From: an uncultured cyanobacterium
Lineage (GTDB): Bacteria > Cyanobacteriota > Cyanobacteriia > Cyanobacteriales > Cyanobacteriaceae
DNA length: 64,000 nt
Reading direction: 5' to 3'
Assembly: GCA_963710605.1 (NCBI GenBank)
Contig: CAVQBA010000004.1
Location: forward strand, 1,344,001 to 1,408,000
Shown here: piece after piece, positions 48,251 to 51,836 of the stretch
How the letters are laid out: each line of letters starts with the position of its first letter
How positions within the stretch are numbered: the first letter of the stretch is position 1
Translations under genes and position numbers: made by a program
The notes under the pieces: generated by a model
Database searches by the model: none
Told to the model about the DNA's origin: nothing
What the model saw: only the letters and a program-made list of their open reading frames with translations

Positions 48251-48670
48251 ATGACGACTAATTTATCCCATAAAAAAATCGGCGTTGCTGTCATTGTCAA
48301 TCACCGAGAAGAAATTTTAATTGACAAAAGATTACCTACAGGAGTAATGGCAAATTTATGGGAGTTTCCCGGTGGCAAGATAGAAGCGAATGAAAGTGTA
48401 ACTGATTGTGTTAGAAGAGAAATTTTAGAGGAGTTGGGTGTAACAGTAAAAATCGATCGACATTTGATTGATATTACTCATAACTATCCTCAATTTCAAG
48501 TTACTTTATACGTTTATCTATGCCATATAATCGAAGGAAAACCTCAACCAATAGAGTGTGCCGAGATTAAATGGGTGAAGGTATCGCAATTAAACACCTT
48601 TACTTTTCCTGAGGCGAATCAAGCGATTATTACGGCTTTGGAAAAAACAGACTTAAAAATTACTTTTTAA
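48251..48670 (+). CDS. mutT: 8-oxo-dGTP diphosphatase MutT
   Basis: Nudix box WEFPGGKIEANE....VRREILEELG; FPEAN. Confidence 0.88.
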   Translation: MTTNLSHKKIGVAVIVNHREEILIDKRLPTGVMANLWEFPGGKIEANESVTDCVRREILEELGVTVKIDRHLIDITHNYPQFQVTLYVYLCHIIEGKPQPIECAEIKWVKVSQLNTFTFPEANQAIITALEKTDLKITF

Positions 48671-48833
48671 AAATTAGCTTCATCTCAATTGTAGAGACAA
48701 CATAAATGTCTTTGATTTACATCTAATTGCTTAAAATTAACCAAAAAAAAGCAGAGAATAAATCTCTGATAAAAAAACAAACAATTATCGACAAATTCTT
48801 TATTGACCTTATTGAAATAGTTTCAATAAAACG

Positions 48834-48986
48834 TTATTTAAGGTAGTAATTTTTTTCAGCTTCTAACTGAGCAACTAAAGCATTTTGACCTTTTGCTCTA
48901 GCTACTTGTAAACGATGTTCTAAGGTTTTTAAAACATTTTGATTATGAACAGTTTGAGCTTTTTTATTCGATTGTAATTTAATCAT
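48834..48986 (-). CDS. pirA: PirA-like 50-aa PII-interacting regulator of arginine synthesis (not in the ORF track)
   Basis: MIKLQSNKKAQTVHNQNVLKTLEHRLQVARAKGQNALVAQLEAEKNYYLK matches the recalled Ssr0692 pattern H..N....LEHRL.VAR..G...L..QLEAE; RBS AAGGA. Confidence 0.85.
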   Translation of the reverse strand: MIKLQSNKKAQTVHNQNVLKTLEHRLQVARAKGQNALVAQLEAEKNYYLK

Positions 48987-49105
48987 TTTTTTCCTTGTAA
49001 TTATAAAATAACTAGATATTTATTGGTTATATTAAATAACGTTAATTTTTCGATAACTGCTTGACAGCTCAAATTATTTAGTTATTATTTTCAACCATTA
49101 TTTTT

Positions 49106-49210
49106 TTAACTAATAGATGAATGGTGACGATTACTAATCATTAATAAACGCCCTTTTCTATCAGTAAAAACATAGTTACTAATTAGTTTGGGGAAGTTTT
49201 GATTGTTCAT
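49106..49210 (-). CDS. 34-aa peptide ORF directly behind the glutamine riboswitch (not in the ORF track)
   Basis: GAGG RBS then MNNQNFPKLISNYVFTDRKGRLLMISNRHHSSIS; RLLM..RHH weakly recalls the GS-inactivating-factor core RALMMRHH. Confidence 0.5.
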   Translation of the reverse strand: MNNQNFPKLISNYVFTDRKGRLLMISNRHHSSIS

Positions 49211-49249
49211 AATGTCGCCTCTTCTAATTCTTGATGATTTTAGATACGA

Positions 49250-49312
49250 GACGCGTTCCTTCAGAAGATTTAATTACTTCTTACTTCCGTCTGTTTAAAA
49301 CAGATGAACGTT
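49250..49312 (-). ncRNA. Class I glutamine riboswitch (glnA motif)
   Basis: CGUUC-A-UCUGUU(UUA)AACAGA-C-GGAAGUA-AGAAG..CUUCU-GAAG-GAACG-CG: P1 CGUUC/GAACG, P2, and P3 with AGUA/GAA E-loop. Confidence 0.88.
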
Positions 49313-49576
49313 TTAAGATACAAATCTAGTATATCTTGAAAGTATCTTATTTGACAACTAAAAATAATTTTTTCTAAACTTTGAGATAATTAATTCAAAT
49401 CAATTTTCAAAAATAATCCACAGTTAAAAACGAATGATTAATGATGAGAAATAAGTGATTGATAGAGTTTGAGACAGATTTATCTATTTGGTAAATGTTA
49501 GTTGAGATATTACGTAACTATCTAGTTTTCACTTCATGAAACTTAATAGTTGATGTTAAAGATAAAGCTTTTGGTT

Positions 49577-50369
49577 TTATTCGTAAAAAGCTATTTTAGA
49601 CCATCGATCGATTATTTGAATTAATTTATTTTCAGTAATTAATCTTATCTTTTTTTTACCTTGAGTAACTTTACTTCTTTCCATTATCTCAACTAAAGAC
49701 AGCAAATGGCTTTTTCTTCCTTTCTTCACGAATAAATTTAACGACTTTATCTAATTCTTTATTAGTAATTCCTGCTATTTGTAAAGGCGAAACAAGTTTT
49801 TCTATTTCTAAAGTATTAAATGCTGTTAATAAATCTAATTTTGTAGGTAACTGCTCATTTAATGATTGCTTATTATCTACAGCTAATTGTTTATTAATTT
49901 GTTCAATTTGAGCTTTTAATTGTTTAATTTTATTCTCGAAATCTTGCTGATAATTTTCGATATACTGATTAAATCTATTTTCTAGGTTATCTATTCTACT
50001 ATCTTTATCCTTATTAGTTTCTACAGCTTCTTTTGGGGCGACGGTAGTAACAGTTTTTGTCTCATTATCATGCAATAAATTTAGTTGCTGACTAATCAAA
50101 TCATTTTCTTTTTTATTAACAATAAAAGCCCTAATCGTTTCAAATTCATCATCAAATTCCCATGCTTTTAAAGCCCCATAAAATTGAAAACTACCTTCAA
50201 CCAATTCGTATCTTTCCAAACTGGTTTCTTCAACAACAAGAGGTTGCACAATACCATCTAACTGTAAAATTAATTGAGCTAACTTTTCTAAATCTTCCTC
50301 GGCAAAATTCGATCGAGGTATTTTAGATGTTATTTTATCAATGTCAACTAAAGATGTTTTAAAACTCAT
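49577..50369 (-). CDS. Atypical ParB N-terminal-domain protein with coiled coil, +1 frameshift near 49702
   Basis: LEKLAQLILQLDGIVQPLVV..YELVEG; GxxR replaced by GSFQ; shifted frame continues SLVEIMERSKV..IIDRWSKIAFYE to the stop at 49577. Confidence 0.7.
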
Positions 50370-50440: not shown

Positions 50441-51836
50441 TTATTCGCCTATTTTCTCTTTTAATTCTAAAGATAAAGCCTCAAACTCAGCGGCTGCCAT
50501 TGAGTCTGGTTTAAATTCAAAAATTGACTTTGGCTCAGGAATTTCTAAATTATCAATTAAAATAAAGTTATCTAAAGCTTTAGCTAAATCATCTCTTTCA
50601 TAAATGCTAGTTTCAAATAACGGCAAATTATATCTTTGGGTGATGACTTTTCTTCTTTTAGGTAAAGTATATTGACAAAATTTAGCATTACTGGAAATTT
50701 TACTGGGCAATACACCTAAGACTTTGATAGGGGCAAAACCAAAGGCATCTTTATCATCGTTGACTTCCTCAATAAAACTTTTGACATTTTTTAATCCTTC
50801 ATTAGCAAATGGCTTCAAGTCAGAAGGAATAATTAAATAATCAGCACTAATCATTGCTATTTTGGCGTATAAGTTTAAAGAAGGAGGAGTGTCGATGAAG
50901 ACATAATCATAATCATTTTCTACCTCTGCCAATTTATATTTTAATCTAGTTCTAGATGCGGCAATATCAACTAAATTTCTTTCTTCGTACATTATAGTTA
51001 ATATGGGCAGGAATTGCATCAATATTATCTTGACTGTAACTGGTTTTACGAGCAACTTCTTTGATTGAATATTTTTTACTTGATTTAATCAAATGAAAGA
51101 CATTAGAGTCTTTTAAATCATCATCAATTTCGTCGGTAAATTTGGCTAAACCAACGGCAAATGTAGTATTAGCTTGACTATCTAAGTCAACAATTAAAAT
51201 TTTAGCACCTTGATGGGCTAAGGCGGCGGCTAAGTTAATAACCGTGGTAGTTTTACCTACGCCTCCTTTGTTATGATATACCGCAATTACTTTCATTTTT
51301 TTGGCTTTATTTAATGATTGAGAAGAAATTTGTGCTGAAGTAGATTTTTCCATTTCTGGAGATTTTTCTAGTAGTTTATCATTATTAGCGATCGATTTAA
51401 TTTGTGTTATTAACGTTTCTTTACCAACAATTTTTTGTAGTTTAGGTAAGTATTGATTAATATTTTTACTGTCGTCTTCTAATAGAAGATAGATATTTTC
51501 TTTTTGTAATTTATAAAGTCTAATTTCTTTACCATTAGTGATTAATCCATATTTGACTTTAAGTGTTTTTAAGTATCTTCTAAATTTAGGAATATGTACA
51601 TCTAAATTTTCACGAGGATGTTTAGCTTCGATAATAACATAGGCATTTCTTCTTATTTTCAATGGTATTTTATCTAACCCTAAAGGGATTAAAAGAAAAT
51701 CTAGACGAATATTTTTATATCTTACTTCTTGATACCAATCGGCGTAATTATATCCTAATAAAGGTAATAAAAAACGAACGATAAATTTGCTTTCTACTTC
51801 TTTTTCGTTACGACACCAATGAGGGGAAAATTTCAC
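50441..51836 (-). CDS. HsdR_N-like PD-(D/E)xK nuclease domain fused to ParA ATPase, +1 frameshift near 50996
   Basis: N-term NEKEVE..QEV..RLDF..IEAK..ITNG; KGGVGKTT, DLDSQAN, DTPPS; removing one base gives IPAHINLMYEE and one 464-aa ORF. Confidence 0.85.

Follow-up and report, generated by a model that had tools for sequence, protein, structure and literature searches.

A glutamine riboswitch, IF7-like gene and pirA unit with a decayed inhibitor gene in a cyanobacterial genome apparently lacking the known targets of both small proteins

RNA-based sensing of glutamine in cyanobacteria has so far been tied to a single output, the inactivation of glutamine synthetase (GS) by the factor IF17, and the small protein PirA has been tied to NtcA and the small RNA (sRNA) NsiR4. 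On the minus strand of a 64,000-nucleotide (nt) stretch of contig CAVQBA010000004.1 from an uncultured cyanobacterium (the window; genome G000, 3.93 Mb in 7 contigs), a pirA copy is physically linked to a glutamine riboswitch, with a short open reading frame (ORF) between them. The locus is likely to be a version of a conserved unit (riboswitch, IF7-like gene, pirA) with a decayed inhibitor gene, in a genome that apparently lacks the known targets of both small proteins.

The closest described riboswitch system is the leader of gifB (sll1515) in Synechocystis sp. PCC 6803, in which an RF01739 aptamer occupies the 5′ end of the mRNA for the GS inactivating factor IF17, the ribosome-binding site is base-paired to the aptamer's 3′ tail and the promoter is of the NtcA-repressed kind; in the gifB model, this tail masks the Shine-Dalgarno sequence until bound glutamine opens the inhibitory pairing (Klahn 2018, PMC6212724). 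The family of the window shares these traits but differs in its factor, which is short and IF7-like and lacks the DUF4278 domain of IF17, and in having pirA follow in the same unit; in the window, moreover, the factor is degenerate. For PirA, the described case is again Synechocystis, where the protein competes with NAGK for PII and the gene is stand-alone, with its own start and two NtcA sites (Bolay 2021, PMC8092223). The 50-amino-acid (aa) product in the window likewise passes the PirA equivalog model, and PII is encoded in the genome. Unlike the Synechocystis gene, however, it is preceded by a riboswitch-led ORF and lacks a box of its own; a second, stand-alone, boxed copy is also present in the genome, and NAGK (argB) was not found. 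The third point of comparison is IF7/IF7A, the product of gifA, which in Synechocystis is reported to be controlled by the sRNA NsiR4 and not by a riboswitch (PMC9196836).

No description of a factor-pirA unit or of a riboswitch-PirA link was found in the full-text literature, the supplements (Klahn 2018 Tables S1/S2, Bolay 2021 Fig. S3) lying outside the search; a first-pass annotation of the window had likewise known no characterised example of the arrangement. The searchable main text of Bolay 2021 (PMC8092223) is silent on synteny, adjacency, co-transcription and paralogs and has the riboswitch in its reference list only, and that of Klahn 2018 (PMC6212724) mentions neither ssr0692 nor an operon.

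Parts of the locus

The locus is housed in a gap of about 0.9 kb between mutT (48251-48670, plus strand) and a parB-like gene (from 49577, minus strand). The first-pass annotation had placed a glnA-type aptamer, a 34-codon ORF and a PirA-like ORF here. All three lie where it put them and at the distances it gave: the ATG of the 34-codon ORF stands 40 nt past the end of the aptamer, and the pirA ORF begins 119 nt beyond the stop of the 34-codon ORF. From promoter to terminator, the parts are as follows.

49342-49357, minus strand: −35-like hexamer TTGTCA (49357-49352) overlapping an NtcA-type box, GTCAAATAAGATAC (49355-49342); promoter scan and GT-N10-AC match
49328-49333, minus strand: −10 hexamer TATACT; promoter scan, with TATATT aligned in relatives
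49250-49312, minus strand: type-1 glutamine riboswitch aptamer (glnA RNA, RF01739); Rfam cmscan
49216-49253, minus strand: expression platform hairpin, CGUCUC (49253-49248) with GAGGCG (49221-49216); minimum-free-energy fold
49106-49210, minus strand: 34-codon ORF, degenerate truncated orthologue of a short IF7-like factor; position, profile and codon alignment
49067-49105, minus strand: out-of-frame remnant of the factor 3′ end, with a second stop, still alignable; DNA alignment
48987-49105, minus strand: 119-nt spacer from the stop of the first ORF to pirA; sequence, with the pirA Shine-Dalgarno AAGGA at 48996-48992
48834-48986, minus strand: pirA2, the switch-linked PirA copy, 50 aa; NF050139
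48742-48768, minus strand: intrinsic-terminator-like hairpin, CAGAGAtttatTCTCTG, followed by a T run and closing the unit; terminator scan

Profile searches confirm the identity of the first and last of the three main features. The aptamer matches the RF01739 covariance model with 57.7 bits against a gathering score of 35 (E 4.2e-10, model positions 1-53 of 53; cmscan, Rfam) and agrees with it at all strongly conserved core positions, which is the positive outcome of the Rfam check that the first-pass annotation had proposed for its glnA-type call. RF01739 is the sole Rfam family above its gathering score in the window, the aptamer occurs as a single copy in the genome, and its score falls inside the range of the relatives (53.8-62.5 bits). 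The 50-aa ORF, called PirA-like in the same annotation, reaches 66.3 bits with the PirA model NF050139 against a cut-off of 50 (E 1.7e-18), residues 3-47 aligning to profile positions 4-48.

Upstream of the aptamer, the promoter-like site TTGTCA-18-TATACT matches the consensus at 10/12 positions and ends 16 nt before the aptamer; the transcript would start about 7 nt after the −10 hexamer, roughly 10 nt ahead of the aptamer. A GTC/GTA-N8-TAC box is found 45-47 nt before the aptamer in 14/19 loci, the window included. In the window, this NtcA-type box shares bases with the −35 hexamer and stops 8 nt short of the −10 hexamer, which puts its centre near −28, a repressive position according to a review that reports repression of Anabaena gifA from an NtcA site centred at −28.5 (PMC6316151). 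Since the looser pattern GT-N10-AC is not enriched across the whole window (132 matches against 145 expected), the box counts through its conserved position only; repression by NtcA would follow from that placement.

The minimum-free-energy fold of 49320-49195 forms the three-helix aptamer and a hairpin between CGUCUC of the aptamer 3′ tail and GAGGCG, which belongs to the first ORF's Shine-Dalgarno region. Both platform arms, CGCCTC and GAGGAGGCG, are kept in all aligned relatives, and their near invariance leaves no countable covariation in the Shine-Dalgarno-masking hairpin among these relatives, as expected for a Shine-Dalgarno partner. That the aptamer binds glutamine and switches expression on is predicted from its class.

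A conserved tandem with a decayed first gene

Among 40 related genomes and the window's own (41 in total), the riboswitch is present in 32, including 18 of the 19 other genomes of the window's family; the family exception is the sister species G001, whose genome is 67% complete. Genomic neighborhood analysis reveals the order riboswitch, IF7-like ORF of 44-50 aa and pirA of 50-51 codons in these 18 family genomes and in one genome of another family (G036), and the window keeps the layout with a decayed factor. The riboswitch-ORF-pirA synteny that the first-pass annotation had suggested looking for thus extends to 19/19 switch-bearing family genomes.

At the position of the 34-codon ORF, the relatives (the 18 family genomes and G036) carry an ORF of 44-50 codons about 40 nt after the aptamer, with the conserved core QQARLLMxxxRQRxxNRQASMLxRxxxxVGLQ. 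One of these peptides matches the IF7A model NF052599 at E 5.4e-9 and 36.2 bits and another at 24.7 bits, both under the equivalog cut-off of 70, and the relatives' peptide is shorter than the IF7A profile length of 66. On the strength of this sub-cut-off match, the 44-50-aa peptide is read here as a short IF7-like GS inactivating factor. As in IF7A, it has three arginines, 13 and 7 residues apart, in ARLLM...NRQ.SML.R. Three conserved arginines are each essential for the binding of IF7 to GS according to a review (PMC6316151), and the spacing in our own alignment suggests that they correspond to those of the relatives' motif.

The window ORF itself has no Pfam or NCBIfam match and none to NF052599 at E up to 1, and across genome G000 this model finds nothing under E 0.09. 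Its position is orthologous, as judged by the NtcA-type box and glutamine riboswitch that stand upstream of it as they do upstream of the factor. Searched with a profile of the 18 relatives' factors, it scores 8.8-10.3 bits (best E 2.4e-5, one target) through RLLMisNR only, compared with 72-99 bits for the relatives from which that profile was made. Codon alignment shows how the rest was lost. After N-R, the relatives' Q-R-K-H-N-R-Q-A-S-M-L-E-R gives way to H-H-S-S-I-S-stop in the window; the first stop is CAA>TAA, and beyond it come an additional base, the residues M-V-E-N and another stop. Across the motif N-R-Q-R-K-H-N-R-Q-A-S-M-L-E-R, the window's Arg codons are changed to His, Ser and Asn, and the factor's C-terminal motif is absent from all three reading frames of the locus. 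Only the first conserved arginine, that of RLLM, is kept, while the second and third read Ser and Asn or fall behind stops. The 34-codon ORF is a decayed, truncated orthologue of the IF7-like GS inactivating factor whose function appears to be lost, and the "unknown minimal peptide" of the first-pass annotation has to give way to a degenerate remnant of that factor.

This pattern also bears on the competing view that the 34-aa product is a functional novel minimal peptide, switched on together with PirA by glutamine through one leader. The ORF retains its ATG, its Shine-Dalgarno sequence and the masking hairpin, its GRLLMISNR-coding stretch matches at the DNA level the conservation seen elsewhere (identity 0.73 versus 0.71 between other genera), and the same operon signs speak for a shared leader under either reading. 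A functional peptide is nevertheless quite improbable: the ORF aligns codon by codon with a longer conserved gene, ends at CAA>TAA and is followed by out-of-frame, stop-bearing remnants; it has one left of the three conserved arginines, all of which are reported as essential for IF7 (PMC6316151); its N-terminal part, at 0.38 identity against 0.55 between other genera, is more diverged than any of those; and it has no family match.

Decay of the factor contrasts with its surroundings. DNA identity of the window to 17 aligned family relatives, compared with the values between other genera, is 0.71 versus 0.77 for the promoter, 0.81 versus 0.79 for the aptamer and 0.80 versus 0.81 for the platform up to the ATG, and the window pirA scores within the 60-68 bits of the relatives' switch-linked copies. 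For the factor 3′ half, the value is 0.48 (highest 0.53) against 0.70 (lowest 0.55). With aptamer, platform, promoter and pirA all within the range of the relatives and the factor 3′ half far outside it, the inhibitor gene appears to have drifted where the control region and the downstream pirA did not.

An intact factor gene truncated by sequencing errors would produce a similar ORF, and the assembly does contain indel errors. Its completeness is 84.88%, a low value that probably reflects indel errors rather than missing DNA. The pgk gene (G000:C4:1111629-1112823) is split between two frames within the conserved WNGPMGVFE region, and 4 of 30 orthologue matches (≥60% identity) align over <85% of the query in one piece, pgk alone having been inspected. 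The parB-like gene next to the locus (49577-50369, minus strand) is shifted by one base near 49689-49729 when compared with the sister genome, and the adjacent parA-like ATPase (50441-51836, minus strand) is divided into two overlapping ORFs (overlap 50967-51055); both splits may be assembly indel errors or real pseudogenes. Indel errors, however, cannot make the pattern of substitution and divergence seen in the factor: a base change created the first stop, the codons for the second and third conserved arginines have been replaced, about half the positions of the 3′ half differ from the relatives, and the C-terminal motif is in none of the three frames. An artefact is therefore very improbable.

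Evidence for one transcription unit

The first-pass annotation had further proposed that one glutamine-sensing leader controls both genes. Within the window, the only terminator-like site in 48600-49700 is the one after pirA, at 48768-48752, and the 119-nt spacer has no terminator-like hairpin, no same-strand promoter-like site and no GT-N10-AC box. The same criteria find no terminator-like hairpin between the two genes in 16/19 loci, and one within 200 nt past pirA in 12/19. The box characteristic of independent pirA genes is likewise missing from the spacers: GTA-N8-TAC is found 73-119 nt before the ATG of the family's stand-alone pirA copies in 14/14 cases and in 0/19 factor-pirA spacers, of which two have a GT-N10-AC match, neither being GTA..TAC. 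A metagenome scan with the window PirA returned 28 loci, 8 of them with an aptamer, an IF7-like ORF of 46-56 aa and pirA; their factor-pirA spacers measure 13-46 nt, and 13 nt in five. Of the other metagenome loci, one is a fusion gene and 19 have no aptamer within 700 nt. Together, the tandem in all switch-bearing family genomes, the rarity of intervening terminators, the lack of a GTA-N8-TAC box in the spacers and the short metagenome spacers give comparative support to a shared leader, and the two genes are probably co-transcribed; the direct action of the platform, however, would reach the first ORF only, and a glutamine effect on PirA would be indirect.

Two further features of the spacers were recorded. 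On the opposite strand of the window spacer, at 49061-49088 (plus strand), a strong promoter-like site, TTGACA-16-TATTAT (11/12), faces the stub ORF and the aptamer and could yield an antisense RNA; it is not conserved in relatives, as the spacers do not align. In another genome (L013, G010), a 25-nt unit (CAAGGTTTGCGTCCAGTAACAAAC-like), repeated in tandem about five times, swells the spacer to 230 nt.

Another competing view is that of a relic, in which switch and stub would be functionless and pirA would be driven by its own promoter within the 119-nt spacer, as in Synechocystis, where a mapped start and NtcA sites belong to pirA itself (Bolay 2021, PMC8092223). The spacer is AT-rich with several −10-like words, three loci of genus g2 have terminator-like hairpins between the genes, and a translational platform would be of no direct use to pirA, all of which would suit such an arrangement. 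A functionless leader, however, should drift along with the factor, and the aptamer, platform and promoter show the conservation found between other genera. Moreover, the window spacer offers neither a same-strand promoter-like site nor a GT-N10-AC box, the GTA-N8-TAC box of the 14/14 stand-alone copies is in none of the 19 spacers, and the 13-nt metagenome spacers leave no space for a separate promoter outside coding sequence. A relic is thus distinctly unlikely.

Several observations weigh against a unit retained for the sake of PirA. The switch platform is of the translational, Shine-Dalgarno-masking kind and would act directly on the first ORF alone; pirA has its own Shine-Dalgarno 119 nt downstream of that ORF, and glutamine control of PirA needs an extra step. 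The z-score of the leader fold is just −1.75. Terminator-like hairpins do separate the two genes in 3/19 loci, all of genus g2, and the factor-pirA spacers are poorly conserved, reach 230 nt and are not alignable between genera; being AT-rich, they can conceal promoters missed by a consensus scan. The case for differential decay is built on a single lineage. In the sister genome G001, the only other one of the genus, the contig is broken about 130 nt before the start of the locus, with a parB-like gene near that end and mutT on another contig. A search with PirA turned up no close relative of the genus. Finally, given that the assembly contains indel errors, the stub's frameshift could itself be erroneous; its substitutions and stops cannot.

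Apparently absent targets and the possible role of PirA

The genome of the window appears to lack the target of the inactivating factor. With the GS type I model (glnA, TIGR00653, cut-off 429), the best scores are 289 bits in G000 and 226 in G001, whereas 22 of 23 other genomes exceed 550 bits and the 23rd has a 424.7-bit fragment cut by a contig end. A tblastn search of G000 with the GlnA of two relatives found only a 31%-identical gene, which is a GlnT-type enzyme (TIGR03105, 661 bits); GlnN, NtcA (361 bits) and PII are encoded in G000. No glnA remnant lies next to pyrH, and gene order is too scrambled between genera to place glnA or argB deletions by flanking genes. The six-frame searches used for these genes read through frameshift breaks, and a real absence of glnA from the genome is somewhat favoured.

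For NAGK (argB, TIGR00761, cut-off 151), the best scores, 35.6 bits in G000 and 30.4 in G001, fall in ProB-like genes, against more than 288 bits in 19/19 other genomes. Only three amino-acid-kinase-family genes are found in G000, encoding aspartokinase, ProB and PyrH; argJ and argC are present in both G000 and G001, and argH in G000. The first-pass annotation had linked the locus to PII/NAGK control, and of that link PII is present, but NAGK was found in neither genome of the genus. If its absence is real, the known route of PirA, competition with NAGK for PII (Bolay 2021, PMC8092223), is unavailable here, yet two pirA copies are intact. PirA is known to act on arginine synthesis by way of the PII-NAGK complex; the absence of NAGK bears on what PirA does in this organism, not on its homology.

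The second copy is stand-alone (L002, G000:C4:847652-847777), scores 70.2 bits and carries, 93 nt ahead of the ATG, a perfect GTA-N8-TAC box; the single pirA of G001 is its orthologue. Most family genomes hold both a stand-alone and a switch-linked pirA, plus a DUF4278-PirA-like gene of about 140 aa that is absent from G000 and G001. In Synechocystis, the binding of PirA to PII depends on adenosine diphosphate (ADP). With PII of G000 (3 copies) modelled together with 3 ADP molecules and PirA2, the predicted complex reached a median score of 0.59 (runs 0.59, 0.66, 0.59), against 0.00 for the best of 3 controls, with a partner predicted local distance difference test (pLDDT) value of at least 79 and runs agreeing in at least 81% of contacts. 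The mark applied to such scores was reached by 51/78 solved complexes and 2/108 mismatched pairs, in a calibration on complexes without ligand, whereas the PII-PirA2 run included ADP; scores up to 0.60 hold only 5 passing complexes of the 78 solved and all 4 passing mismatches (of 180). The prediction thus lends weak support to PII-PirA2 binding.

From these parts, a working model can be proposed. The conserved unit would comprise an NtcA-type operator over the −35 hexamer, a type-1 glutamine riboswitch with a Shine-Dalgarno-masking platform, a short IF7-like gene, pirA and a terminator. At low nitrogen, NtcA on the GTC-N8-TAC box would block the promoter; in nitrogen excess, the unit would be transcribed through to the terminator past pirA, and glutamine on the aptamer would free the Shine-Dalgarno of the first ORF. 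The factor gene of this genus would have become non-functional, probably because its target, GS type I, is apparently missing from the genome. As promoter, aptamer, platform, start codon and pirA are all kept, the unit may now serve PirA expression, the 34-codon stub most likely being only a leader ORF gated by glutamine; its translation may make the transcript more stable or aid translation of pirA. That glutamine actually controls PirA output here is a tentative proposal, somewhat short of an even chance.

The link between the riboswitch and PirA is not confined to this family. In a class-wide sample of 151 genomes, 98 contain the riboswitch and 103 a PirA-like stretch (E up to 1e-8), and comparison of coordinates places an aptamer directly upstream, on the same strand, of a PirA-domain ORF in at least 23 genomes and at least 25 loci. 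At least 22 of these loci are single ORFs of about 125-160 aa. The ten examined (126-149 aa; genomes G063, G065, G048, G149, G074, G096, G078, G132, G049 and G036, loci L121-L126, L128-L130 and L067; 12 more are known by coordinates only) all have an N-terminal DUF4278 domain (PF14105, 41-79 bits) and a C-terminal PirA domain (NF050139, 45.5-65.6 bits, with the cut-off reached by 8/10), and none has an IF7A match. These fusions thus share with the window a PirA domain under a type-1 glutamine riboswitch, but the domain is there the C-terminal part of the directly gated ORF, whereas in the window PirA is a separate downstream gene.

At L127 (G134:C27:37150-38150), a 67-aa DUF4278 ORF comes next after the switch, and behind it a 105-aa ORF with two tandem PirA-like domains. 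In G000, the genome's only DUF4278 gene (L082, G000:C7:65146-65319) is a stand-alone 61-aa ORF that has no riboswitch and is preceded at a short distance by a GTA-N8-TAC box (GTAATAATTGATAC).

DUF4278 ORFs behind the aptamer have been counted as IF17 or IF17-like (Klahn 2018, PMC6212724), and the literature search found no paper mentioning both DUF4278 and PirA. Many riboswitch-led DUF4278 genes formerly read as IF17-like carry a PirA domain in place of an IF7-like tail. The most far-reaching version of this idea holds that the genus lost GS type I and NAGK, that the switch was retained because it gates PirA through the decayed leader ORF, that PirA has a NAGK-independent task with PII, and that PirA-type PII binders form a second arm of the glutamine riboswitch regulon; taken as a whole, it is speculative and rather unlikely.

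For the biology of this lineage, the locus amounts to a natural experiment: the inhibitor gene has decayed while switch and pirA appear intact, a pattern not easily accounted for if the switch has no bearing on PirA, and one that hints at a role of glutamine sensing for PirA as well. If the absence of glnA and argB is real, it raises the question of what role PirA plays without NAGK. And if the proposed control of PirA is true, glutamine would feed directly into PII signalling.

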